DNA from: an uncultured Alphaproteobacteria bacterium
GTDB taxonomy: Bacteria > Pseudomonadota > Alphaproteobacteria > Rhizobiales > Xanthobacteraceae
Direction: 5' to 3'
Assembly (NCBI GenBank): GCA_963710045.1
Contig: CAVPZO010000038.1
Coordinates: 4,792-68,791, forward strand
DNA length: 64,000 nucleotides
The notes beneath the pieces were generated by a model. The model had not been told where the DNA came from. It did not search any database and saw nothing but the letters and a program-made list of their open reading frames with translations. Of the stretch, positions 1,401 to 56,048 are shown in pieces. The stretch's first letter is position 1. Every line of letters starts with the position of its first letter. The position numbers and the translations under genes were made by a program.

Positions 1401-1852
1401 GCCGCTCGCGCTCCCTATGACTTTGGTCCCCTCAGCATTCCCGCCAACAGGCTGACAATGCTGCACGATCCGCACCCTGACAACGGCCTTGAGATGAACT
1501 TTGCGAGCACCCGGGCCGGATCGTTAGAACGCGTCGAAATCCAGCCTCTCAAACCATAATTCGCAGCCTCTCGCAATGCAGTAGTAGGGCTTGGAGCGAT
1601 GCATTCACCGCTCACCTCCCAGCATCGCATTTTCCCGAGGAATCGGGCGAAACGCCCATATTTGCAGCGGGACAGCGCTTGACAGCCGGATTGTCCGATG
1701 TAGGCACAGAGAGGTCGCTCTACAGCAACCTGATTCGCGTGAGCGGCCCGTTCCGGCGCCTGGATTGCTTGAATACCGCCTTCAAGGCGCCGTCATTGCC
1801 GATCAGTCCAATGTTTCAACCAGTTTGCCAGAACCTTGAGGGATCGACCCGG

Positions 1853-2374
1853 ATGGGGTTTTCGAGACAGCAGACAAAATTCCAGATCGCGGCCGGCGCC
1901 CTTGCCGCCGCGCTGTTTTTCGGCCTCACCGCCACAGCCGGCGCCCAGGGCGCAGTCCGCTCGGTGCATGGCGACTGGCAAATCCGCTGCGACACCCCGC
2001 CGGGCGCGCAGGGCGAGCAATGCGCCCTGATCCAGAGCGTGGTGGCGGAAGACCGCTCCAACGCCGGCCTCACCGTGATCGTGCTGAAAACCGCCGATCA
2101 AAAAAGCAAGCTGATGCGGGTGGTGGCGCCCTTGGGCGTGCTGCTGCCGTCCGGGCTTGGCCTGAAACTCGACAATGTCGACGTCGGCCGCGCCGGCTTT
2201 GTCCGTTGCCTGCCCAACGGCTGCGTTGCCGAAGTCGTGATGGACGACAAGCTGCTCGGGCAATTGCGGACGGCGAAGACGGCGACGTTTATTATTTTCG
2301 AGACGCCGGAAGAGGGGATCGGGTTTCCGCTCAGCCTGAACGGGATCGGCGAGGGGTATGATAAGTTGCCGTGA
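1853..2374 (+). CDS. invasion-associated locus B (IalB) family protein
   Basis: Signal peptide, HGDWQIRC, PLGVLLPSGL, RCLPNGC motifs. Confidence 0.88.
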   Translation: MGFSRQQTKFQIAAGALAAALFFGLTATAGAQGAVRSVHGDWQIRCDTPPGAQGEQCALIQSVVAEDRSNAGLTVIVLKTADQKSKLMRVVAPLGVLLPSGLGLKLDNVDVGRAGFVRCLPNGCVAEVVMDDKLLGQLRTAKTATFIIFETPEEGIGFPLSLNGIGEGYDKLP

Positions 2375-43924: not shown

Positions 43925-45294
43925 ATGGCCTTGGGGGACCAGGTCCGGAATGGCGAGACGAACCCCGCCTGGCCGCGGCGGGACGCAGCACATTTCGCGT
44001 GGCGTGACAGGCCTGCATTCCTGCGCGGAAGCTTTGGCCCGCCAAGATCCAGCAATGACAATCAGCGCTATGTCCTCGATGAAGGTCCGGCCGATGAGCT
44101 GGATTGCCTGCGACGCGTGCTGGCGCCGGAGTTGCTCCGGGCCGCCGAAGCGCGCGCCCGGGAACTGGGCATCGGCGCCGACCGGGTGCTGATCCTTTGG
44201 GGCGTGATCGACGAAGAGGCCTATCTGCAGCGGCTTGCGTTTCACACCGGCATCGCCACCGAAGATTTCTCGGAAATCGGCCACGGCGATTCTTTGCTGC
44301 GCGACCGCGAAATCCTCCAGGCCGCGGAGCTCTGCCTGATCCGGCTTTGGCGGAACGGCCGCTTGATCTGGACACTCGCGCCGAGGCACCTTGCGGCACG
44401 CACGCTGTGCAGGCTTGTCGCAAGATATCCCGACCTGACCGAGTGGCTCCGGCTCGCAACATCCTCGCGTCTCCACCAGTTCCTGCTGCATCAGACGGAC
44501 GACGTGCTCGGCCGAGCCGCCGCGAGTGGTCTGCGCCGGCGCTTTCCGCGGATGTCGGCCGCGCCTGCCGCCGTCAAGGGACCGCGATGGCGCAGGCATC
44601 TGCAACGCTTCAAGGGACCGTTCGTCATCGCGGCGCTGATGCTGCTGCCGCCGATCATTGCCCTGGACGCATGGAGCGTCGTGCTGGCGCTATGGTTCCT
44701 GGCGTTTATCGGCCTGCGTCTTGTCGGGAGTTTCGTGCCGCGACAGCCGCAGAAGAAAATGCGGCGCCTGCCGGACCATCAATTGCCGGTATACACCGTC
44801 ATCGCGGCACTTTACCGCGAGGCGAAATCGGTCGCGTCCTTGATGCAGGCGATCGACGAACTCGACTACCCGCGCGAAAAACTCCAGGTCATCCTGGCCC
44901 TCGAGCCCAACGATCTCGCAACCCGCGCCGCCATCGCGCGGCTTGGTCCGATGCCACATGTGCAGGTCCTGATCGCACCCGCCACCGGCCCCACGACCAA
45001 GCCGAAAGCGCTGAACTGCGCGCTTCCTTTCGCGCGAGGCAGTTTTGTCGCGGTGTTCGACGCCGAAGATCGCCCCGATCCCGGCCAGCTTCGCGCCGCG
45101 CTCGATGCCTTTCGCAGCAACGGTGTCGACGTCGCCTGCGCGCAGGCCAGCCTCTGTATCGACAACAACGGCAACGACAGCTGGCTGTCGCGGACGTTCG
45201 CCGCCGAATACGCCGGACAGTTCGATGTGTTTCTCCCGGGCCTCGCGGCGATGCGGATGCCGCTGCCGCTGGGCGGGTCGTCGAATCATTTCCG
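43925..45294 (+). pseudogene. GT2 glycosyltransferase, N-terminal part (interrupted by IS)
   Basis: ALYREA, LDYP, TKPKALN, FDAED, LGGSSNHFR; reading frame continues at 50246. Confidence 0.92.
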
Positions 45295-45420
45295 CGGCAT
45301 TAGGTAGCAAACTCACCAAGCGGCTTTTGCCGCCCGAGCATAGCTATCTGAGCCGAGAAAGGTTCGGAAAACGATGTTTTGCAGGCTCGCACCCCGGTTG
45401 CGGGGTGTTAGGATTGCGGC

Positions 45421-46431
45421 ATGCATTGGCTACGGCACCACTGGATCGCCCTGCTTGGCGCGATCCCGCTCATCCCCCCAACGCTCAAGTGGCTCGGTTG
45501 GCTTGTCAGCCGGGGCGGTGACGTGGATTTTGTCATCTCGCGCACCAACGACCCCGCTTGGGTGGGCACGATGATCGGCTGGATCATTAACCCGCCCGGA
45601 TGGGCGATACTGCCCCTGATCGCCGGAGGCCTTTTTCTAATCTGGTTGCATGTGCGCCGGCGGTCGGACGCGCCGGTCAAGGACCAAATAACAACACCAC
45701 AAAAAACAGACCCCCATTATGATACAAGGCCTGAAAAGGCCACGCCTAGCGGGGGGCAATTGGTAGAACTAGGGCAAAACATTATTATAGCGACGGTCGT
45801 AGTGGCCTGTATCGGGCTGGTCTTTGGGCTTTTCTTAATTCTCCTAGGAGACAGGCAAAACGCCAAACGGGCAGCCGCCCTAGCGCCTGCGAAATCCGAG
45901 GTCGCGCAATCCACATCGCCAGCCGTCAAGCCGCCAGACCCAATTATCGTTCCGGCTACGCCCCCGTCTCCAACCCCAACCCCAGCCCCGCCAGCCAGAG
46001 AATTTGTTCAGGAGAACATCACTCCTGAATATTTGGTTGGCCTGTATGATGGCGGCCATACATCGTTAGGAGCAAATCTGCGCGCATCGGTGTTTATTGG
46101 CAAATGGCTGCAGGTAACTGGGCCATTGGGGAATATTGTTGGAGGGGATCGTTCCTTCGACGGCAGCAGACTCCCTGCGGTTGGATCAATTACATCCACA
46201 AACGGGACATACTTTCATTTGGTCTTCAGGGGGGAATGGATCGAGCGTGCCGCTATGGTTCCAAAAAATGAAACGGTAACTGTGCGCGGCAAAATCCAGG
46301 ACATCGCCCGCGCTCTGATAACCTTGGATGATGTTGAGTTGATCGAACCTAGGAACGAAGGTCCAGCTCGTTCACCGCGAGCGCGTCGAGGCACCGCAGA
46401 AAGAAAGCGGCGGAAACCCGGCCCCGGCTGA
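45421..46431 (+). CDS. passenger: membrane protein with Pro-rich linker and C-terminal OB-fold-like domain
   Basis: Three hydrophobic segments; FIGKWLQVTGPL...VTVRGKI pattern. Confidence 0.65.
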   Translation: MHWLRHHWIALLGAIPLIPPTLKWLGWLVSRGGDVDFVISRTNDPAWVGTMIGWIINPPGWAILPLIAGGLFLIWLHVRRRSDAPVKDQITTPQKTDPHYDTRPEKATPSGGQLVELGQNIIIATVVVACIGLVFGLFLILLGDRQNAKRAAALAPAKSEVAQSTSPAVKPPDPIIVPATPPSPTPTPAPPAREFVQENITPEYLVGLYDGGHTSLGANLRASVFIGKWLQVTGPLGNIVGGDRSFDGSRLPAVGSITSTNGTYFHLVFRGEWIERAAMVPKNETVTVRGKIQDIARALITLDDVELIEPRNEGPARSPRARRGTAERKRRKPGPG

Positions 46432-46669
46432 TCTTGGGGAAGCCCGCGAATCAGCCCTTGTTTTGGCCTACATGTGGTAGAAATTAGCGATGTCTTCACA
46501 CTATATGTTGACAATTTGATTCTGACTTCAATGGGTTAGCCTTGGGTCCATTTGGCAGTTGCGTAATATTGTTACGCTTGTTACCCCTCTCGGGCGGTAC
46601 TGGGAGGACGATGGCAGCGCGAGCGGCGCGGTCTGAAATCGTCGCAAAAACCGATTTTGGGAGATATTT

Positions 46670-46858
46670 ATGGCGATAGATGAACCTGTGGCGGGATCGT
46701 CAGCACCTGTTGTTATCGGCGCGACCCTGTTCCGCGGCATTGTCGCGGTTCAACCGCAGGATTCCTTCCAGCCAAATGATCTTCCGAAAATTGACGAGGC
46801 GCTGCACTCACCCGAAGTGATTGCCTCGCTTCAGCAGCGCGCCCTCAAATTAGATTAG
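46670..46858 (+). CDS. passenger: small hypothetical protein (62 aa)
   Basis: GGAG RBS upstream of ATG; precedes the 197-aa ORF. Confidence 0.55.
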   Translation: MAIDEPVAGSSAPVVIGATLFRGIVAVQPQDSFQPNDLPKIDEALHSPEVIASLQQRALKLD

Positions 46859-46898
46859 CTTTATTACGGCTTCAAATTGCGTTAGTGAGCGGTCCATC

Positions 46899-47492
46899 AT
46901 GACTGCGCAGCAATACCATTGTGAGCAAAAGGCGCTGTTCAGCAATCTTGCTGATCGGCAATGGTTTCACGACTTTGTCGATTATCAATATAAACGGGTC
47001 GTGTTCAATATGGAGCCCGTCACTCCTGTCCTTTCCGAATATTGGATTTATCAAGCTCACTATCGGTGGGCAAAGGACATGGAGCATTCATCCAAGAAGG
47101 AGTACGACGGAAGGCCGCTAGATCACTTCAAGCGGGCCGGCTTTCTTTGCTACTGGCTTCGTCGCTGTCCGCCGATGGCAGAGCTAATGTCAAATCCCGA
47201 CTTGACGTTTGCTCAGATTAAATTTCGCGATCCCAATAAAATCTTGACCCAGTACGGCAATGTTTTTGCTGCGTTTGATATTGGTCTTCGGATTTGCAGA
47301 TATTGGGAGTTTGCCCGTACAGACATCAATTACGATTCCGAAACACGTCAACGGATTTTGAAGTTTTCGATACCGCAAAGATCAGAATTCATTGAGGACA
47401 TTTGTTACACCTTGGCTGAGAAGAATATCTCTCCGCACTCACTTCATATGCTTTATAAGTCACTCTTTCTTGCCCTTAGGCCCCAAGAGTAG
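46899..47492 (+). CDS. passenger: hypothetical protein (197 aa), AT-rich
   Basis: Long ORF in low-GC DNA; no family recognised with confidence. Confidence 0.75.
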   Translation: MTAQQYHCEQKALFSNLADRQWFHDFVDYQYKRVVFNMEPVTPVLSEYWIYQAHYRWAKDMEHSSKKEYDGRPLDHFKRAGFLCYWLRRCPPMAELMSNPDLTFAQIKFRDPNKILTQYGNVFAAFDIGLRICRYWEFARTDINYDSETRQRILKFSIPQRSEFIEDICYTLAEKNISPHSLHMLYKSLFLALRPQE

Positions 47493-47506
47493 GGACCTTG
47501 AGCAAG

Positions 47507-47965
47507 CTAACGGGCCAGCGCGCGCAGCGTCCACATCAAATTGCCCTTAGTGTCCACAGACGACCGCACGTCGCCAGCCTGTTTCAAAATGCGAAGCGCT
47601 TTGGAGGCGCGCCGCGTTACATCGGTAATCAGCTTTCGATCACGCGCATCCTTGCCTTCCAAGGCGACGATTGCCTGCGCTATTTCCCGGCTTCCCATCG
47701 GCCCTGTAGCGCCGCGTAGTTCGTCTAAAATGGATCTGGTTAGCTCGCCCTTGCCGAACACTACGTTGTGCTTTTGCCGTGGCATTTCCTTATCCAGATC
47801 GCCGGTATAGCCGAGCGTACTCAGAACGCGATCCAGCGCCCCTATGTCGTTCCTGATTTCAGCGGTGCGGTCACGCAATCGCGCGGCTTCATTGAACAGG
47901 TCTGATCGCTTCGCAAGCAAGCCGGTAATCGTATGCTCGTAAGTTTCGGTTCGTGCCGGTTTCAT
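47507..47965 (-). CDS. passenger: coiled-coil + winged-helix-like protein coupled to the transposase
   Basis: ATGA overlap with the transposase stop; N-terminal heptads; GELTRSILDELR...SREIAQAI. Confidence 0.75.
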   Translation of the reverse strand: MKPARTETYEHTITGLLAKRSDLFNEAARLRDRTAEIRNDIGALDRVLSTLGYTGDLDKEMPRQKHNVVFGKGELTRSILDELRGATGPMGSREIAQAIVALEGKDARDRKLITDVTRRASKALRILKQAGDVRSSVDTKGNLMWTLRALAR

Positions 47966-48921
47966 TTCGCCGCCCTCTGCCAGTAGCCGCACCAAACTTT
48001 GGAAACGGGATGATTGAGGCTCGCATCGGCGGCCATCAAATATTGTTCGCCGTTGCTGATACGGCGGTTGTTCTCGCGCCACGCCATTTCGCTCGCATAG
48101 GCTGAGAGGTACGGGCCGGCGACGTGATGGTGAATGCCGATCTCAGCACGGCGAAGGCGCGAGAAAAACGACTCCGCCATGTTGGTGCAGGCTTCGCCAT
48201 CCGAATAGCTCTGGCTGTGATTGATGCGCTTCGTCAGGAAGCGCGCATGTAGCGCGTCCCAATGCACGGCTTCGTCAGCGTAAACAGTGCTGCCGGGCGC
48301 AACGGTGCGGGCAATCGTCAGGACCGATGCACCTTCCGACGAGAACACGAAAGGCAGCGTCCGCCCCTTGCGCTCGCGCATGACGACAACCACGCGGCGC
48401 TTGCCGGTCTGGTTCTCTGCGAAGCGACGGTCCACGCGATTGACCTTGTGATTTGCGGGTCGCACGTGGCCGCCGAAATAGGCGCCATCAACTTCGACTT
48501 CGCCCGATACGGTCGCGCCGTTTGCTTCCGACGCCAGCGCTTCGCGGATTTTGTGAGCCATCACAAACGCGGTTTTGTATTGGCAATCCAGGTCACGGCT
48601 AAGCTGTAGGGCGCTATGCCCCTTCGCGCCGTTCACGAAAATCGCAATGGCAAGCAGGTAGTCGCGGATTGAAAGCTTGCGGCTGGCGAAAATCGTCCCG
48701 CTGGTCACGCTGAATTGGTGATCGCAACCCTTGCACTTGAACAACTTGCGGGTCGTGTAGGCGTAGGCACCTAAGCAGCCGCAGCGCGGGCAAACCGGGT
48801 CGCCGTTAGTGGCGGACCACCGGACCAGCTTGAACGCCTGATAGGCTTCCTCGTCGGACAAACGGGCGACCTTCGCTAAACTTAGCGACCTCGCCTTTGC
48901 CGATAGTAGGAAGTGCTGCAA
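47962..48921 (-). CDS. IS1595 family transposase (Zn ribbon + ISXO2-like DDE)
   Basis: CPRC...CKGC, TSGTIF, VEVDGAYFGG, VYADE, TNMAESFFSRLRR; TTG start behind GGAGA. Confidence 0.95.
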   Translation of the reverse strand: MQHFLLSAKARSLSLAKVARLSDEEAYQAFKLVRWSATNGDPVCPRCGCLGAYAYTTRKLFKCKGCDHQFSVTSGTIFASRKLSIRDYLLAIAIFVNGAKGHSALQLSRDLDCQYKTAFVMAHKIREALASEANGATVSGEVEVDGAYFGGHVRPANHKVNRVDRRFAENQTGKRRVVVVMRERKGRTLPFVFSSEGASVLTIARTVAPGSTVYADEAVHWDALHARFLTKRINHSQSYSDGEACTNMAESFFSRLRRAEIGIHHHVAGPYLSAYASEMAWRENNRRISNGEQYLMAADASLNHPVSKVWCGYWQRAAK

Positions 48922-49000
48922 CGCTATCTCCGGGCCAACGATTTCCGTTGACCTCATTGATAAGCGTTGAAAGTAATGGCGTCAACTTAAATCGTTTACC

Positions 49001-49029
49001 TTGACGAAAATTGTTTACGTCGCTAGTTT
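49001..49029 (+). promoter_or_regulatory. sigma70-type promoter of the XRE gene (predicted leaderless transcript)
   Basis: TTGACG-N17-TAGTTT, then 6 nt to the ATG. Confidence 0.6.
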
Positions 49030-49035
49030 GCTGCG

Positions 49036-49257
49036 ATGACCCCAGAACAGTGTCGAGCCGCGAGAGCATGGCTAGATTGGCCTCAAGACGCGCTTGCAAA
49101 AAGCGCGAACGTGGGCGTTTCGACGGTTCGGGACTTTGAGGCAGGACGCCGTGAGCCGACGCGGAACAATCTAACGGCAATGCAAGCTGCACTGGAAAAA
49201 GGTGGCGTTTCATTCGTTGATGACGGGAAAGCGCGCGGGATTTCGGCCCCGTGCTAG
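49036..49257 (+). CDS. XRE family HTH regulator
   Basis: MTPEQCRAARAWLDWPQDALA...TVRDFEAG. Confidence 0.92.
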   Translation: MTPEQCRAARAWLDWPQDALAKSANVGVSTVRDFEAGRREPTRNNLTAMQAALEKGGVSFVDDGKARGISAPC

Positions 49258-49285
49258 ACGTGAATCGGTGATCCTGATATAAAGT

Positions 49286-49527
49286 TGCGGTGGACCGGTT
49301 GGGGATCGGACCCAAGCGTCGCGGGTGGAAATCCAGCTAGCGGCACCAAGCCCCGGCCCGTTCCGCAGAAGCTACCAGCCACGCTCGCAACGCGACTGAT
49401 AGCCTCTCGGTATTCGACAGCTTCATGTTGTCATGTACCACCAACCTTTCGACCCGCCTTCAACGGGTGCCATACTTAGGCGTTAGAGTTCGGACTACCG
49501 GGGCCTTGCGGCCCCGGATTTCGTTTT
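49286..49527 (+). ncRNA. candidate structured ncRNA in the transposon
   Basis: TAGACG-N17-TATAAA promoter, several stems, and an intrinsic terminator; no credible long ORF. Confidence 0.5.
49498..49527 (+). terminator. intrinsic terminator
   Basis: CCGGGGCC-TTGC-GGCCCCGG-ATTTCGTTTT. Confidence 0.75.
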
Positions 49528-49532
49528 CGTGA

Positions 49533-50090
49533 TTAGGCGTACTTGCTCAGCTTCGTTGAACTGAGGGTTTTTGCGGATTCAGTTTCGGCTTGCGTTGCAG
49601 GGGTTTCTTGGTCCTCTTGCGCAGCTTCACCGGACTTCGGTTTTTTCAAATCAGGATACCAGCTAGTCAGGCCGTAACTGTTGTTCGGCAAGCGGTGGAA
49701 GAATGCCGTGCGTTTTCGCAGCAGCGCGCGCATCCCGATCATTGCCGTGGTTGCGTCTTTGGCCTCGAACTTGAAACCGCCCGAAGTGATGGCATCGTAG
49801 ATTTCGCGCGGCGTCGCTGGCCCCAGGTTTTGGAGCTTCCGCATTTCGAGATATTCGCGGACGGCCGTTTGAAGCTTTTTGCCGTAGAACGTGTCCGGCT
49901 TGATCTGGGTTATGGTGTGGGAACCAGCGCCCGACCTCGTGCTGTCGCCACCACCGCCGCCAAATGGCGGGCGAGGTCCAAGCCCATCTTCCTTCCGTAG
50001 GTCATTAATGACCTCGATTAATCCGTTCGCCTTGCGTTCCAATTCGCCCAAGCGCACCTCAAGGGCATCAATCGCAATTTGGTTTCCCAT
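49533..50090 (-). CDS. passenger: coiled-coil + winged-helix (HARE-HTH-like) protein
   Basis: GGAGG RBS, ATG 50090; AVREYLEM...PATPREIYDAI...FHRLPNNSYGLTSW. Confidence 0.75.
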   Translation of the reverse strand: MGNQIAIDALEVRLGELERKANGLIEVINDLRKEDGLGPRPPFGGGGGDSTRSGAGSHTITQIKPDTFYGKKLQTAVREYLEMRKLQNLGPATPREIYDAITSGGFKFEAKDATTAMIGMRALLRKRTAFFHRLPNNSYGLTSWYPDLKKPKSGEAAQEDQETPATQAETESAKTLSSTKLSKYA

Positions 50091-50245
50091 GGTCGCCTCC
50101 GCGCGCAATAGTGCGCGGGAATCATCTAGCAAATCAAAGCCCCGGCCACAAGGGAAATTTGGGACATTCTGGGACAATTGTGGAAAAACGAGTCAAATGG
50201 ACCAGTTTGGCCTAGGTGAGTTTGCTACCTAATGCCGCATTTCCG

Positions 50246-50927
50246 TACCGCGGTGCTGCGCGAGGTCGGCGGCTGGGACGCCTGGAATGTGACCGAGGAC
50301 GCCGACCTCGGCTTTCGCCTCGCGCGCTTTGGATATCGATCTGTCACCTTCGATTCGACCACCAGCGAGGAAGCGCCGATCCGCTTCAAGCCATGGCTGC
50401 GTCAGCGTTCGCGCTGGATGAAAGGCTGGATGCAGACCTGGGGCGTGCACATGCGCGAGCCCCGGCGGCTGTGGCGGCAAGCCGGTCCACGCGGATTCCT
50501 GACGCTCAATATCATTGTCGGCGGCAACGTGCTGACCGCGCTCGCGTACCCGATTCTTGTGATCGAACTCGCGGCGTATCTCCTGACCAACATCACCGGC
50601 AGTACGTCAGGCTTGTTCTTCACGGGTTCGCTGGCGCCATTGCACATCGCGACCATCACAACCGGCTTTGCGTCGACCGTCCTGATCGGCCTGATGGGGC
50701 TTGCACGTCGCGGCAGGCTTCGCAGCGGCTGGGTTCTGGCGCTGACGCCGTTCTATTGGGCCGGCCTGTCGATCGCCGCATGGCGCGCGCTTTGGCAGCT
50801 TTGGGTCGATCCCTATCGTTGGGAGAAGACCGAGCATGGCCTTACCCAAAGCCGGCAATCAACTGAAATGCCGCGCTCGCGGGCAACCGCGCATCCGATG
50901 AGGCGGCAGCGCGGATTTCAGAGATAG
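50246..50927 (+). pseudogene. GT2 glycosyltransferase, C-terminal part
   Basis: GGWDAWNVTEDADLG, QRSRWMKG, WEKTEHG. Confidence 0.92.
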
Positions 50928-51511
50928 CGCTTGAGATCTTTCGCCGCTTCCGCCGGCGTCCGCTTCAGATTGAACGGCGCCACGAATTTTCCGTCGCGGT
51001 CCATCAGATAGATCAGCGCGGTATGATCCATGGTGTAATCGCCGTCCTTGAGCGGGACCTTTTTGGCATAGACCCGGAAGCCGGAAATCACTTTCGCCAC
51101 CGCATCCTTGTCGCCGGTCAGGCCCTTCAGGTGCGGATCGAAGCTCGACAGATAGTCCTTCATCGCAGCACTGGTGTCGCGCTCCGGGTCGACCGAAATG
51201 AACCAGGCGTTGACGCGGCCGGCATCCCCGCCCATCGCGCGCAGCAGTTCGGAGATTTCGAACAGCGAGGTCGGGCACACATCCGGGCAATGCGTGAAGC
51301 CGAAGAAAATCAGCGTCGGTTTTCCCTGCAGATTTTTCTCAGTGACGGCCTGTCCGGCCTGGTCGGTCAGCTGAAACGGCCCGCCGATCGCCGCCGGCGC
51401 CGTCACCCCGCGCAAGCCGCCAAGCATCCACAGCACGACCACCAGCCCGATCACCAGGCTGGAGGCGAATGCTGCGACAATGATCAGCGGCCGGGTGGTC
51501 CGATCCATCAT
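50918..51511 (-). CDS. SCO family copper chaperone
   Basis: FGFTHCPDVCP, VDPERD, YTMDH. Confidence 0.95.
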   Translation of the reverse strand: MMDRTTRPLIIVAAFASSLVIGLVVVLWMLGGLRGVTAPAAIGGPFQLTDQAGQAVTEKNLQGKPTLIFFGFTHCPDVCPTSLFEISELLRAMGGDAGRVNAWFISVDPERDTSAAMKDYLSSFDPHLKGLTGDKDAVAKVISGFRVYAKKVPLKDGDYTMDHTALIYLMDRDGKFVAPFNLKRTPAEAAKDLKRYL

Positions 51512-51530
51512 AAAATTCCTTTGGATCAGA

Positions 51531-51734
51531 TCAGAAGCAGGCGGCGATGCCCGATGTGATCATCTCGAAGAAGACGGCGGTGCCGTAGTGGACCCACAAC
51601 ACCGCGGCGCCGATCAACAGGGCCGCGACAAGGACGGCGCTGCCAACGATGATTCCGAACGCCACGCCGCCCATCGGACGGGGCGCCGGCACCGCGCTTT
51701 CCTGAATGGACCCTTGGTGCGCCGTGTTCAGCAT
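51531..51734 (-). CDS. small membrane protein
   Basis: One TM segment; LWVHYGTAVFFEMI; start approximate. Confidence 0.65.
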   Translation of the reverse strand: MLNTAHQGSIQESAVPAPRPMGGVAFGIIVGSAVLVAALLIGAAVLWVHYGTAVFFEMITSGIAACF

Positions 51735-51818
51735 CACTCCCAGATAGGGCCAGCCGGGCCGCCCGGCAAGCGCTGCCGGCGCGGCAGCGATCACGTCATG
51801 CTGAGGGATAGCGCGATC

Positions 51819-52277
51819 TCAGCGCGGGATCGAAGCCTGGGCGTCCATGTAGCAGGGCTTGTACATGCCCATCAGCTGGCGTCCGCGCAGGAAAATCATG
51901 CGCTGGGTCAGCCCGCCGCGCTTCGCGATCCAGCGCCGGATTTCCGACGGATACATGGAATACAGCATCTGGGTGGCTTCCGGATTGGTCACCGCGCGGC
52001 CATTGGCGCCGAAATCCCAGGCGGCGTGAAAGCCGAGATTGGCGTGGGAGGTCACGCAAATCCTGTCGTGGGGAACCGCGCCGAGAACGATGGTACAGGC
52101 CGAGGCGCAGAGGCCGTCGATGATCACCGTTTCGCCGGAGCTGCGCAGGCCCTGATACTTGTCGACATAGGTCCCGATCCGGCCGCCGCGGTCGTCGGCG
52201 ATCCGAACCACCGCATGACTTGCCCCGACGCCCGCGACCAGCAAGACCGCCGCGAGCAACCCCGTAACGAATTTCAT
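51819..52277 (-). CDS. secreted hypothetical protein (ClpP/crotonase-like motif)
   Basis: Signal peptide; DRGG, IDGLCASACT, LGFHAA. Confidence 0.75.
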   Translation of the reverse strand: MKFVTGLLAAVLLVAGVGASHAVVRIADDRGGRIGTYVDKYQGLRSSGETVIIDGLCASACTIVLGAVPHDRICVTSHANLGFHAAWDFGANGRAVTNPEATQMLYSMYPSEIRRWIAKRGGLTQRMIFLRGRQLMGMYKPCYMDAQASIPR

Positions 52278-52566
52278 GACCAGCCCCAGTCCAAAACCTG
52301 TCGAACCCGAATCTGACTGTCTTGAGTGATGCAAGACTGCGCCAGCGTGTTGCGGGACCGGCGTTTTGTCCAGACGGCCGGGGCGGTTCAAATCAAATTC
52401 AAATCGAGTGTTGCACGCGGGATGCACCCTCGGCTGCCGGCATCCCAAACTGGAACAATCAAGGCGTTCGGCGGCGCTGCCGCGCGCACCGTCAAGGCCG
52501 TATTTGCCGTTGACCGCGGTTAGAGCGGCAGGCTTCAATCCTTAAGGAGGCAGGGGAGACAATCCG

Positions 52567-54225
52567 ATGGCCGATGAGGCTGATGTCATTGTGGTCGGCG
52601 GCGGGCTCGCGGGCCTGGTCGCGGCGACGGAAATTGCCGACGCCGGCAGACGCGTCATCGTGGTTGAACAGGAGGGCGAGCAGAGCCTCGGCGGCCAGGC
52701 CTTCTGGTCGTTCGGCGGGTTGTTCCTGGTTGATTCGCCCGAGCAGCGCCGGCTCGGCATCAAGGACAGCTACGACCTGGCGCTGCAGGACTGGATGGGC
52801 TCGGCCGGCTTCGACCGCGACGACGATCACTGGCCGCGGCGGTGGGCCGAGGCCTATGTGGCATTTGCCGCGGGCGAAAAGCGCGGCTGGCTGCGCGCCA
52901 TGGGCCACCGCATCTTTCCGGTGGTCGGCTGGGCCGAGCGCGGCGGCTACGACGCCATGAGCCACGGCAACTCGGTGCCTCGGTTTCATGTCAGCTGGGG
53001 CACCGGCCCCGGCATCGTCGAGCCGTTCGAGCGGCGCGCCCGCGAGGCACAGGCCAGCGGCCTGCTCAGCTTCCGGTTTCGCCACCGGGTCGATGCGCTG
53101 ACCTCGAGCGGCGGCGCCGTCGATGGCGTCCGCGGAGCGATCCTCGAGCCGTCCAGCGTGGCGCGCGGCGAGAGCAGTTCGCGCGCGGTCAGCGGCGAGT
53201 TTGAACTGCGGGCGCAGGCGGTGATCGTCGCCTCCGGCGGGATCGGCGGCAATCACGACCTGGTCCGGCAGAACTGGCCGAAACGCCTTGGCGATGCGCC
53301 GAAGAACATGATCTCCGGCGTGCCCGCGCATGTCGACGGCCGCATGATCGGCATCACGGAGGCTGCCGGCGCGCGGCTGATCAACCGCGACCGGATGTGG
53401 CACTATGTCGAGGGCATCCGGAACTGGAATCCGATCTGGCCGATGCACGGCATCCGCATCCTGCCGGGGCCCTCGTCGATGTGGTTCGACGCCACCGGCA
53501 CGCGGCTGCCCTCGCCGCTGTTTCCCGGCTCCGACACGCTCGGCCAGCTGCAGTACATCATGGGTACCGGCTACGACTATTCATGGTTTGTGCTGACCCA
53601 AAGCATCATCAAGAAGGAGTTCGCGCTGTCGGGCTCGGAACAGAATCCCGACCTCACCAGCAAGAGCTGGCTGATGACCGCGCGCCGCGCCACCAACAAG
53701 GGCGCGCCGGCGCCGGTGGAAGCGTTCAAGAGCAAGGGCGCCGATTTCATCGTGCGCGACAACCTGGCTGACCTCGTCGCGGCCATGAATGCGCTTAGCG
53801 GCGACAATCTTTTGAAACCCGAACATCTGAAGGTCCAGATCGAGGCGCGCGACCGCGAGATCGCCAATCCTTATGTCAAGGACACCCAGGTGATGGCCAT
53901 CCACAACGCGCGCAAATATATCGGCGACCGCCTGATCCGCACCGCAAAACCGCACCGGATTCTCGATCCCGCGCACGGGCCGCTGATCGCGGTAAAACTC
54001 AACATCCTGACCCGCAAGACGCTCGGCGGATTCGAAACCGACCTGGACTCGCGGGTGTTCGGCAGCGACGGCCAGATCATGCCGGGTCTCTATGCGGTCG
54101 GCGAAGCCGCCGGCTTCGGCGGCGGCGGCATGCACGGCTATCGCTCGCTGGAGGGCACCTTCCTCGGCGGCTGCCTGTTTTCCGGGAGGAATGCGGGGCG
54201 GGCGGCGGCGAAGGCGGTGGCGTGA
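52567..54225 (+). CDS. FAD-binding dehydrogenase (FAD_binding_2 family)
   Basis: GGGLAG, WSFGG, RKTLGG, LEGTFLGGC. Confidence 0.92.
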   Translation: MADEADVIVVGGGLAGLVAATEIADAGRRVIVVEQEGEQSLGGQAFWSFGGLFLVDSPEQRRLGIKDSYDLALQDWMGSAGFDRDDDHWPRRWAEAYVAFAAGEKRGWLRAMGHRIFPVVGWAERGGYDAMSHGNSVPRFHVSWGTGPGIVEPFERRAREAQASGLLSFRFRHRVDALTSSGGAVDGVRGAILEPSSVARGESSSRAVSGEFELRAQAVIVASGGIGGNHDLVRQNWPKRLGDAPKNMISGVPAHVDGRMIGITEAAGARLINRDRMWHYVEGIRNWNPIWPMHGIRILPGPSSMWFDATGTRLPSPLFPGSDTLGQLQYIMGTGYDYSWFVLTQSIIKKEFALSGSEQNPDLTSKSWLMTARRATNKGAPAPVEAFKSKGADFIVRDNLADLVAAMNALSGDNLLKPEHLKVQIEARDREIANPYVKDTQVMAIHNARKYIGDRLIRTAKPHRILDPAHGPLIAVKLNILTRKTLGGFETDLDSRVFGSDGQIMPGLYAVGEAAGFGGGGMHGYRSLEGTFLGGCLFSGRNAGRAAAKAVA

Positions 54226-54305
54226 GGACCGGCACGCCCGGAATTGTAGTGGCGGCAGGCGCACCCGCGCGCTAAGTATCGGCGCCGCAAATTTTGGAGA
54301 GCAAA

Positions 54306-54656
54306 ATGACCATCCAGCGTTTCGAGACCGGGCCGCGCATGAGCCAGGTCGTGATCCATGGCGACACCATCTATCTCGCCGGCGTCGTGGCCAACACCGC
54401 GGCGGGCAAGAGCGTGACGGAGCAGACCAAAGACGTGCTCTCGATCATCGATAGCCATCTTGCGAAAGCAGGCAGCGACAAGTCGAAGCTGCTGTCGGCG
54501 ACGATCTATCTTCCCGACATGGGCACCTTCGCGCAGATGAACGCGGTGTGGGACAGCTGGGTTTCGCCCGGCAATACCCCGGCGCGGGCTACCGTCGAGG
54601 CCAAGCTTGCGGCGCCCCGATATGGCGTTGAGATCATGGTGACCGCGGCGCGGTAA
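54306..54656 (+). CDS. RidA/YoaB family protein
   Basis: RMSQVV, MNAVWDSW, PARATV. Confidence 0.92.
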   Translation: MTIQRFETGPRMSQVVIHGDTIYLAGVVANTAAGKSVTEQTKDVLSIIDSHLAKAGSDKSKLLSATIYLPDMGTFAQMNAVWDSWVSPGNTPARATVEAKLAAPRYGVEIMVTAAR

Positions 54657-54668
54657 CGCTGGCCCGGC

Positions 54669-54698
54669 GGGAACCTATTTGCCTGTGCCGCATCCAAC
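54669..54698 (+). promoter_or_regulatory. ECF promoter (autoregulatory)
   Basis: GGGAAC-N16-CATCCAAC; the same motif recurs at 55436. Confidence 0.75.
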
Positions 54699-54738
54699 CC
54701 ATCAGCGGCACAGTGTAATCGGACCCCGGGTGACTATC

Positions 54739-55431
54739 ATGCGGCCTGCGCAAGCCTCGCAAATTAACCCCGTCGGTATCGACGACGCCGAACTGGTCCG
54801 GCGCGCCTGCGCCCGCGACGAGGCCGCGATTCGATGCATCATGCAGGCGAACAATCGCAGGCTCTACCGGATTGCCCGCGGCATCCTGCGCAACGACGGC
54901 GAGGCCGAGGACGTGGTGCAGGAAACCTGGGTCCGCGCGTTCACCCATCTGGAGAGTTTTCGTGGCGATTCCAGCCTCGCCACCTGGCTTGCCCGCATCG
55001 CCATGAACGAGGCGTTGGGCCGCTTGCGCCGGCAGCGCCCGAGCGTCGAATTGAGCACCTTGCCGCCGGGCGCGCTGGAAGCGCAGATCATCCAGTTCCC
55101 GCTTTCGGCCGCATCCGAGGATCCGGAAAAGACCATGGCACAACGTGAAATCCAGCATGTCGTCGAACACGCCATCGACGAACTGCCCGAGGCCTTTCGC
55201 ATCGTCTTCATCACCCGCGTGATCGAGGGCATGAATGTCGAGGAAACCGCCGAACTGCTCGACCTGAAGCCGGAAACCGTGAAGACGCGGCTGCATCGTG
55301 CCCGGACCATGCTGCGGGACAATGTGGAAAAGAAAATCGGCCCGGTGGTGATGGAAGCGTTTCCGTTTGCCGGCAGGCGCTGTGAGCGCCTGACCGAGGC
55401 GGTTTTGAAAAGGCTCGGCCTGGCCGCATAA
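54739..55431 (+). CDS. ECF sigma factor with C-terminal RCE motif (ECF29-like)
   Basis: AEDVVQE, TVKTRLHRAR, FPFAGRRCERL. Confidence 0.9.
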   Translation: MRPAQASQINPVGIDDAELVRRACARDEAAIRCIMQANNRRLYRIARGILRNDGEAEDVVQETWVRAFTHLESFRGDSSLATWLARIAMNEALGRLRRQRPSVELSTLPPGALEAQIIQFPLSAASEDPEKTMAQREIQHVVEHAIDELPEAFRIVFITRVIEGMNVEETAELLDLKPETVKTRLHRARTMLRDNVEKKIGPVVMEAFPFAGRRCERLTEAVLKRLGLAA

Positions 55432-55435
55432 TTTC

Positions 55436-55465
55436 GGGAACGTTTCCGTCCGCGCTCCATCCAAC
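55436..55465 (+). promoter_or_regulatory. ECF promoter of the DUF4142-cupredoxin operon
   Basis: GGGAAC-N16-CATCCAAC. Confidence 0.75.
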
Positions 55466-55526
55466 TCCTGTGTTCAACCAATCGCGCCGGCGACTCAAAA
55501 TCCCGGCGCCACAGGAGTGTCAGACC

Positions 55527-56048
55527 ATGTTCGTTCGATTGAGCGCGGCAATCGCCGCGGTTAGCCTGTTGAGCGGGGCTGCTTTCGCGCAGGGCGCAAA
55601 ACCCACTGACCCGCAGATCGCGCATATCGCCTACACCGCCGGCGTGCTCGACATCAACGCGGCAAAGCAGGCGCAGAGCAAGGCCAGCAACAAGGAGGTC
55701 AAGGCGTTCGCCGACGACATGGTGCGCGACCACGAAGCCGTCAACAAGCAGGCGCTCGACCTGGTGAAGAAACTGAAAGTCACACCCGAAGACAACGATA
55801 CCAGCAAGACCCTGTCGAAGAACGCCGCCGACAAGCTCGCCGAACTCGGCAAGCTGAGCGGCGCGGCCTACGACAAGGCGTACGTCGCCAACGAAGTCGC
55901 CTACCACAAGGCGGTCAATGGCGCGCTGGAGACGCTGCTGATTCCATCCGCCAGCAATGCCGAACTGAAGAGCCTGCTGCAGACCGGCCTGAAGATTTTC
56001 CAGGGCCATCAGCAGCATGCCGAACACGTCGCCGCGGCGCTGAAGTAA
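55527..56048 (+). CDS. DUF4142 secreted ferritin-like protein
   Basis: Signal peptide; VKAFADDMVRDH, YDKAYV, EVAYH. Confidence 0.85.
   Translation: MFVRLSAAIAAVSLLSGAAFAQGAKPTDPQIAHIAYTAGVLDINAAKQAQSKASNKEVKAFADDMVRDHEAVNKQALDLVKKLKVTPEDNDTSKTLSKNAADKLAELGKLSGAAYDKAYVANEVAYHKAVNGALETLLIPSASNAELKSLLQTGLKIFQGHQQHAEHVAAALK

Follow-up and report, generated by a model that had tools for sequence, protein, structure and literature searches.

A cassette of rare-codon minigene, alanine-type tRNA mimic and predicted antisense RNA in an IS1595 element, a possible RNA-only toxin-antitoxin system

The window, i.e. the whole stretch of 64,000 nucleotides analysed from contig CAVPZO010000038.1 of an uncultured Xanthobacteraceae bacterium, harbours an IS1595 element with a compact non-coding cassette. 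On the minus strand, 3′ of a winged-helix gene, the cassette possesses a strong Shine-Dalgarno (SD) site, a minigene with two tandem rare codons, a long hairpin and a 72-nt cloverleaf, organised in this order. A promoter and a terminator on the plus strand predict an antisense RNA. The four parts of the toxin CreT are present, the CRISPR parts are absent, and the antisense unit covers the toxin-like parts; for these reasons we read the cassette as an RNA-only toxin-antitoxin system. The minigene would deplete the cell's supply of a rare tRNA, and the antisense RNA from the plus strand would keep the minigene silent. We regard this reading as plausible, if still short of probable. A toxin-antitoxin role had been among the suggestions of the initial annotation of this DNA, and was a good guess, with the difference that the plus-strand transcript it proposed best fits the role of antisense partner.

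The IS1595 element is complete (45295-50237, 4,943 bp). It is bounded by terminal inverted repeats of 23 nt without mismatches (left 45295..45317, plus strand; right 50215..50237, minus strand) and by 8-bp target-site duplications (45287..45294 and 50238..50245). The insertion splits a family-2 glycosyltransferase gene, whose halves, at 43925-45307 and 50232-50927, both match glycosyltransferase models. The transposase (47962..48957, minus strand) matches Pfam PF12762/PF12760 and, above the cut-off, NCBIfam NF033547; judging from the starts of its homologs, it probably begins at a TTG near 48923. The DDE_Tnp_IS1595 transposase, the inverted repeats and the 8-bp duplication place the element in the IS1595 family, in agreement with the transposon location given initially. 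The element also encodes an XRE-type helix-turn-helix gene (49036..49257, plus strand; Pfam HTH_3) and, according to a structure model, a 185-aa coiled-coil and winged-helix protein with a disordered tail (49533..50090, minus strand). The predicted structure of the latter resembles the N-domain of RNA polymerase delta (HARE-HTH): the top five Foldseek rows were RNA polymerase delta subunits, all weak (E 7e-3 to 6e-2), and 11% of its Atlas cluster is HARE-HTH. Searches with this protein gave no match in Pfam, NCBIfam or PADLOC, and PADLOC matched none of the six passenger proteins tested. Three further passengers, none of an assigned family, are a protein with a membrane anchor and a faint OB-fold match of the tRNA_anti-like kind (45421-46431, plus strand; E 0.066), a 197-aa protein (46899-47492, plus strand), and a second coiled-coil/helix-turn-helix-like protein (47507-47965, minus strand), which overlaps the transposase stop.

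The structured RNA of the cassette is its minus strand. The initial annotation had described a structured RNA of about 240 nt on the plus strand, where the fold is near chance (z -1.89, 10 of 200 shuffles equally good), whereas the minus strand reaches z -3.33 (1 of 200 shuffles equally good). Consensus folding of seven full-length homologs gave -83.3 kcal/mol on the minus strand against -59.1 on the plus strand, and the covariation term, covariation having been recommended as a check, was -3.4 on the minus strand against -0.4 on the plus strand. The minus-strand consensus recovered, unprompted, the cloverleaf and the 18-bp hairpin. The resemblance to a tRNA T-arm and CCA end noted earlier reflects an existing tRNA-like unit, but it had been placed on the plus strand, and the cloverleaf belongs to the minus strand (49359-49288). 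The same holds for translation signals, as the reported lack of an evident ribosome-binding site overlooked a strong SD before a 3-codon open reading frame (ORF) on the minus strand (49450-49423). Single-sequence z-scores preferred the minus strand in most of the 12 units, clearly so in the window family, with near equality in L038 and L048 and reversal in L035 and L086.

Other claims made from the sequence proved sound, among them that of a non-coding RNA. Coding on the plus strand was rejected, with the 64-aa ORF at 49285-49479 broken or shifted in 5/5 homologs. A 29-aa ORF overlapping the minigene stop was also discarded, as it needs a UGA stop present only in the window and L008. The RNA had not been recognised as a known family; Rfam returned zero matches at E<=1 over 44000-56000, and nothing over the cassette unit in the window nor in the 12 and 16 homolog loci scanned. 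A dedicated, conserved non-coding RNA unit does travel inside the transposon. Its long hairpin (49368..49406, minus strand; about 18 bp, rich in G·U pairs when read from the minus strand) lies between minigene and mimic and is conserved with compensatory changes in the consensus fold of the seven homologs. Alignments also delimit a small variable hairpin with a conserved 10-nt motif 5′ of it (49451..49479, minus strand). This motif (49470-49479) recurs in every window-type cassette, those on IS1-type elements among them, and is a possible processing or protein-binding site.

The minigene reads AUG ACA ACA UGA (Met-Thr-Thr-stop; 49423..49434, minus strand) and is preceded by an extended SD site (49438..49450, minus strand). 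The SD duplex energy is -10.7 kcal/mol in the window and -12.8 to -15 in the homologs; among host genes the 5th percentile is -11.8 and the 25th -8.9. Codon rarity was judged for every locus by the codon use of the window's host (per 1000: ACA 2.8, TTA 0.8, AGA 1.3, ATA 1.75). As far as sequence comparison goes, the conserved feature of the minigene is codon rarity and not the peptide. The encoded amino acids vary (Thr, Ile, Arg, Gln, Pro, Leu, Lys) and the codons stay rare throughout; related cassettes exchange pairs of rare codons (ACA/ATA/AGA/TTA/CAA/CCA). The minigene classes include Thr-Thr/Ile-Ile/Arg-Ile, Gln-Gln/Pro-Pro and Leu-Leu/Lys-Lys, and a further class, Met-Trp-Gln, has its rare pair at codons 6-8.

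An automatic rule, which took the strongest SD and start behind the winged-helix gene at the 22 loci found through the protein (window included), gave codons 2-3 that were both rare in 6/22 loci compared with 2.5% of 1572 host genes, and both identical and rare in 5/22 compared with 0.5%. Two further loci had Met, one rare codon and a stop, and 14 of the 22 lacked a rare-codon minigene under this rule, several of them having one with a weaker SD. Among 28 distinct minigenes, adjacent rare codons occur in 19 (composition null 7-8) and adjacent identical codons in 16 (composition null 2); these figures are indicative only, since the set was chosen by start motifs read by eye, its members are related, and the nulls overstate significance. 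A new scan of viral sequences for the Met-Trp-Gln class used the fixed SD core and codons 1-5 only, and found 91 distinct contexts, nine of them with the spacer of the cassette. TTA, AGA or ATA, the three rarest codons, stood at both codons 6 and 7 in six of these nine, against 0/75 among the other starts long enough to score; the remaining three had AGA TTA at codons 7-8 (two) or TTG ATA (one). Seven of the nine were new loci, five of which were positive. The covariance model placed a mimic upstream in four of the nine, and a long-arm tRNA was present in one. A pattern based on the SD only was rejected, as its matches were mostly chance: 4/4 viral matches were unrelated, and most of those in 45 family-level loci were inside long ORFs.

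Two variants of the start region were also observed. L027, L083 and L086 possess a small hairpin between minigene SD and start codon, forming a structured-spacer start site. In L026 the minigene slot, just 3′ of the winged-helix gene, is occupied by a 19-aa hydrophobic ORF that resembles a type I toxin, with the antisense layout unchanged.

The tRNA-like unit (49288..49359, minus strand; 72 nt, 86 bits with covariance model R1) is of the alanine type. It comprises a 7-bp acceptor, a 3-bp D arm, a bulged arm with a 7-nt loop (49332-49326) and a 5-bp T arm. G1-C72, G2-C71, G3·U70 and A73 are present in 20/20 homologs (in the window G3·U70 is 49357/49294 and A73 is 49291), the two bases after A73 are CC in 17/20, and the full CCA is encoded in 8/20. 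G3:U70 is the main identity mark for alanyl-tRNA synthetase (AlaRS; PMC7609411). In a model-fitted alignment of the 20 units 96.1% of cells are paired and 11 of 18 pairs are compensated, with slid controls at no more than 63%; a plain MAFFT alignment of 10 units gave 93.9% paired cells and changes on both sides in 9/18 pairs. No linker bases separate the arms. The third arm has a bulge and a loop that mostly keeps U33 and has C37 and a variable triplet; by general tRNA rules, these properties make normal decoding unlikely. A canonical D arm, a 5-bp anticodon stem, an NGC anticodon and a purine at position 37, as expected of tRNA-Ala, are lacking despite the complete set of alanine acceptor marks. 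ARAGORN made no call on the unit, and an acceptor-type pattern scan of 40 of the 81 host contigs had the window unit as its single match.

Several candidates and ideas concerning the mimic were rejected. Weak covariance model matches (27-37 bits) were ordinary tRNAs in 22/22 cases checked, 12 of them tRNA-Ala, and a 39.5-bit match in L049, a Ro60/RtcB locus, was part of a YrlA-like RNA and was excluded. A match between mimic loop and minigene codons fails in the window family. Masking of the SD by the mimic until RNase P cleavage was seen only in the window and L085 among 12 folded units.

Cloverleaf antisense RNAs of the C4/CI type belong to phages P1 and P4. Similar to these and to the YrlA Y RNAs (RF02553), short tRNA-shaped RNAs of mobile or repair loci that are RNase P substrates, the mimic is small, tRNA-shaped and mobile. 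Pairing between loop and target as in C4/CI was considered and discarded, as the 10-of-11 match of the window is lost in L008, L035, L038 and L039 (by eye); the Rfam C4 family gave no match over the mimic unit and, unlike YrlA, the mimic locus lacks Ro60/RtcB neighbours. With the tRNA-like domain of tmRNA (RF00023, RF04321) the mimic shares alanine acceptor marks, the T arm and the lack of a normal anticodon. However, its halves are contiguous within 72 nt, tag reading frame and pseudoknots are absent, an anticodon-like arm is kept, and neither Rfam family matched over the mimic. Likeness to allo-tRNAs, and to irregular tRNAs encoded close to toxin-antitoxin loci and transposons (PMC5389517, PMC7609411), includes the odd cloverleaf, the occurrence in mobile elements of soil bacteria and, for some allo-tRNAs, the G3:U70 mark. 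Nevertheless, allo-tRNAs show 8/4 or 9/3 branching together with a long variable arm, and the mimic is 7/5 without variable arm, has no linker before the D arm and carries C at position 37. By these membership tests, the mimic is not a tRNA-Ala, a tmRNA or an allo-tRNA.

The plus-strand unit begins with a sigma70-like promoter (49255..49283; -35 at 49255-49260, -10 at 49278-49283), which is predicted to drive the antisense RNA. Its boxes, TAGACG (49255) and TATAAA (49278) with a 17-nt spacer, had already been reported; they are present, and the signal is conserved in the homologs. The conservation of promoter and terminator suggests an RNA from 49290 to 49527 (plus strand), which would be complementary over the full extent of mimic, hairpin, minigene and SD. 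The intrinsic terminator (49498..49527, plus strand) consists of a hairpin at 49498-49517 and a U-rich tail. A U tail (at least five U in 9 nt) is found on the plus side in 11/13 homologs and on the other side in 0/13, as had been noted for the window. An automatic promoter scan made no call at 49255..49283, because the -10 box lacks the last T; -10 boxes of Alphaproteobacteria often lack it. The best antisense promoter score was at least 7 in 18 of the 22 protein-found loci, and on the other strand in 6/22; 13% of 2316 random and 30% of shuffled windows scored as high, under a scoring rule devised for this analysis and fixed after several sites had been viewed. In the window the -10 box ends 5 nt from the encoded end of the mimic, and the spacing is similar in five homologs. 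The promoter signal is also present in L020, L029 and L032, where the rare-codon minigene is absent.

As the terminator has no U tail on the minus strand, the mRNA of the winged-helix gene would read through it, and the sense RNA probably starts at the promoter of this gene. A weak promoter-like site is located at 50132; no strong promoter was found on the sense strand. Soil metatranscriptomes gave a hint of transcription of cassette relatives. In three of four runs, from different studies, contigs of relatives covered about 49305-49453, some bridging mimic and minigene, and in the fourth run they covered 49414-49520; the contigs are unstranded, and the runs were selected by means of this DNA stretch.

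BLASTn with the whole region found relatives in 0/150 related genomes, and none in plasmids or phages. Homologs were gathered through the neighbouring winged-helix protein, as the initial annotation had advised, and through the most conserved (tRNA-like) block. The protein led from 570 relatives to 22 distinct loci with DNA, window included. With two covariance models, the block was detected above 45 bits in at least 8/150 genomes of the family, 2/150 of the order and 1/150 of the class; for the genus, with a threshold of 45 bits or more, the figure was at least 2/150. Since 31 candidates were scored per genome, these counts are lower bounds. The IS1595 transposase was present in 13 of 20 aligned loci, most of which span only 1.5 kb each way. 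Duplicates were removed before counting (L017=L008, L024=L009, L028=L010, L036=L034, L146=L035, L217=L147, L236=L098, and L033/L148=L013, which is a further copy, truncated, from L011's genome).

The cassette is modular. About half of the mimic loci have no nearby minigene, and model R2 found no tRNA-like unit beside the minigene and hairpin in L009, L010, L014, L016, L018, L021, L025, L027 and L030. The order of mimic and minigene varies, with the minigene downstream of the mimic in L015, L098, L147, L212 and L261; in L147, a phage contig, one mimic is flanked by two minigenes. L038 is a deleted element of 1.4 kb, in which XRE gene and most of the transposase are gone and the whole cassette is retained. 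The winged-helix protein had been proposed as partner of the RNA, and the unit is indeed tied to such a gene; however, the gene is exchangeable, being unrelated or distant in L034, L048, L123 and L129, and no evidence of RNA binding by the protein was found.

Further elements and tRNA-like genes were observed at these loci. L038:1138-2513 and L013:1109-3130 are non-autonomous IS1595 derivatives with both ends and without transposase; in them the winged-helix gene survives, together with the whole cassette or the greater part of it. Irregular tRNA-like genes occupy the same slot in L012 (about 1810-1900, plus strand), L094:1578-1653, L198:183-279 (positions in the turned locus) and L097 (about 1490-1640); they follow winged-helix genes or precede minigenes, and some are in tandem. 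In L079 an ORF pair upstream of the mimic, in the IS1595 passenger slot, reads by eye like a HigBA-type toxin-antitoxin. L087:1501-1578 (minus strand; R2 45 bits) is a tRNA-like unit with G3·U70 directly after an AlpA-like gene, on an island bearing an integrase. P4-type satellites keep their CI RNA at such an AlpA-adjacent position.

Two IS1-type loci, L123 and L129, were located by the SD pattern alone. Their upstream cassette parts are as in the window, and their minigene contains AGC AGC, which at 15 per 1000 is not rare. Directly behind it lies a near-canonical tRNA with GCU anticodon (L123:1595-1670, plus strand; L129:1821-1897, minus strand), which lacks the long variable arm of serine tRNAs and has A20, C35 and G73, presumably arginine marks. 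The unusual C55 is common to this tRNA and the window mimic. It is a candidate missense tRNA. The AGC AGC minigene with its matching tRNA suggests that minigene and tRNA module are tied in function; it goes against the toxin-antitoxin reading and would suit a sensor, treated below.

Under the toxin-antitoxin reading, the winged-helix mRNA would run through the terminator, which is effective only for the opposite strand, and cleavage by RNase P at the mimic's 5′ end would release SD, minigene and hairpin with a protected 3′ end in the layout of CreT. The free 72-nt mimic might then be charged by AlaRS. Repeated initiation on AUG-X-X-stop would lead to peptidyl-tRNA drop-off and tie up a rare tRNA, in the window the reader of ACA. 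The antisense RNA would block the SD, and the duplex would be degraded by RNase III. Toxicity would appear once antisense synthesis ceases, upon loss of the element, phage shut-off or stress. The core toxin would be the minigene part, with the mimic as an optional module. Retention of the whole cassette in the deleted element L038 speaks for this reading, as do the conserved antisense promoter and one-way terminator; the AGC AGC minigenes, the loci lacking a rare-codon minigene, the mimics with none close by, the mixed strand preference outside the window family and the failure to find a strong sense promoter speak against it.

This layout has precedents. In CreT, toxin of the type VIII system CreTA, PMC8501985 and PMC12737573 describe a strong SD, AUG, two special codons, stop and a 3′ hairpin, with toxin and antitoxin both RNA, as proposed for the cassette. 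CreT homologs exchange AUA AUA for AGA AGA (PMC8501985), similar to the codon pairs swapped between cassettes, and toxicity needs each of SD, start, tandem codons and hairpin (PMC8501985, bioRxiv 10.64898/2026.06.02.729485). The cassette possesses the strong SD and start, two consecutive rare codons (except in L123 and L129) and the 3′ hairpin. In CreTA, a repeat-derived CreA guide and a Cas effector repress the toxin promoter; no sign of a CRISPR-derived guide was found here, with no repeated 14-mer in the IS1595 element and no Cas1 in the host genome (81% complete). The cassette also differs in the predicted control by a fully complementary cis-antisense RNA and in its carriers, which are insertion sequences and phages, and in many cases it is joined to a tRNA-like unit. 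The lambda bar minigenes, ORFs of 2-3 codons ending in rare codons, are expected to cause peptidyl-tRNA drop-off. Such drop-off is greater with shorter minigenes and drains tRNA (PMC2490762). Unlike these, the cassette is conserved and includes a hairpin, an antisense unit and a tRNA-like module of its own. As in type I toxin-antitoxin systems, a convergent antisense RNA lies over toxin SD and start, here in the form of sequence signals only; the small hydrophobic peptide of such systems is missing, with 3 codons in the window and a hydrophobic product only in L026 among 28 minigenes. Judged by these comparisons, the cassette would work like CreT and the bar minigenes, yet it is not a CreTA member.

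Other explanations place the function elsewhere. It is unlikely, but conceivable, that the minigene is a sensor or ribosome cap, whose held ribosome would protect the 5′ end of the RNA or report a shortage of the matching tRNA and so set the amount of tRNA or mimic; the odd tRNA would then be the effector, through mistranslation, as a decoy for tRNA-cutting enzymes or as a spare tRNA. The pairing of AGC AGC with a GCU-anticodon tRNA in L123 and L129 is in agreement with such a sensor. Several metatranscriptome contigs also end at 49448-49453, about 15-20 nt before the AUG, although these ends could be graph branching at the variable hairpin. The modularity of the cassette argues against it, as many loci possess minigene and hairpin without tRNA-like unit, five have the minigene downstream of the mimic, and the mimic loop is constant while the minigene alternates between ACA, ATA and AGA. 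Insulation of the transposase, with RNase P cut, stalled ribosome and convergent plus-strand transcription stopping passenger read-through, seems quite unlikely. It would suit the window, L008, L011, L035, L039, L079, L082, L083, L096 and L130, where the transposase is downstream on the cassette's strand, as it is in the IS1-type L123 and L129. Nevertheless, the transposase faces the cassette in L010, L012, L018, L019, L020, L026 and L081, none was seen within 3 kb in the phage-borne L147, and the selection of tandem rare codons would be left unexplained.

That, in line with the initial annotation, the plus-strand RNA itself is the working structured RNA, for instance as a trans-acting sRNA with an anti-SD loop or as ligand of the winged-helix protein, with the minus-strand features as by-products, is very unlikely. 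The conserved promoter and terminator do point to a real plus-strand transcript with a single-stranded part complementary to SD and AUG. However, both the covariation and the G·U pairs speak for the minus strand, the minigene is the only good target among the element's own start regions, and the complement retains start, stop and rare codons despite sequence change. Neutral debris, a decayed tRNA or tmRNA piece with chance hairpins, is scarcely credible. The small departures of the window copy, namely an extra D-loop base and an unencoded last CCA base in the mimic and one SD change in the cassette, would fit decay, but conservation contradicts it: 96% of paired cells are kept and 11/18 pairs compensated among 20 homologs, the alanine marks are invariant, and the codon pattern was confirmed at new loci.

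A search confined to the open full-text literature found no description of the cassette. In the papers located by it, natural minigene toxins of this layout are tied to CRISPR-Cas. If the toxin-antitoxin reading is true, a CRISPR-free version on IS1595, IS1-type elements and phages would widen the type VIII toxin-antitoxin systems, and would offer a possible origin for CreT and a possible job for alanine-type tRNA mimics in transposons. The whole unit is shorter than 250 nt and cheap to test, and natural controls are at hand, with different codon pairs, with or without the mimic or with it in either order, and with the matching-tRNA variant. More generally, though we consider this somewhat unlikely, insertion sequences and phages of Alphaproteobacteria may carry a modular, protein-free translation weapon, in which a tRNA-starving rare-codon minigene is joined to an exchangeable odd tRNA, either a mimic that carries alanine or a wrongly charged tRNA with an anticodon for the minigene's own codons, and one cis-antisense RNA silences both; CreT would then be a CRISPR-tamed member of a much wider class of minigene toxins acting in addiction or abortive infection.
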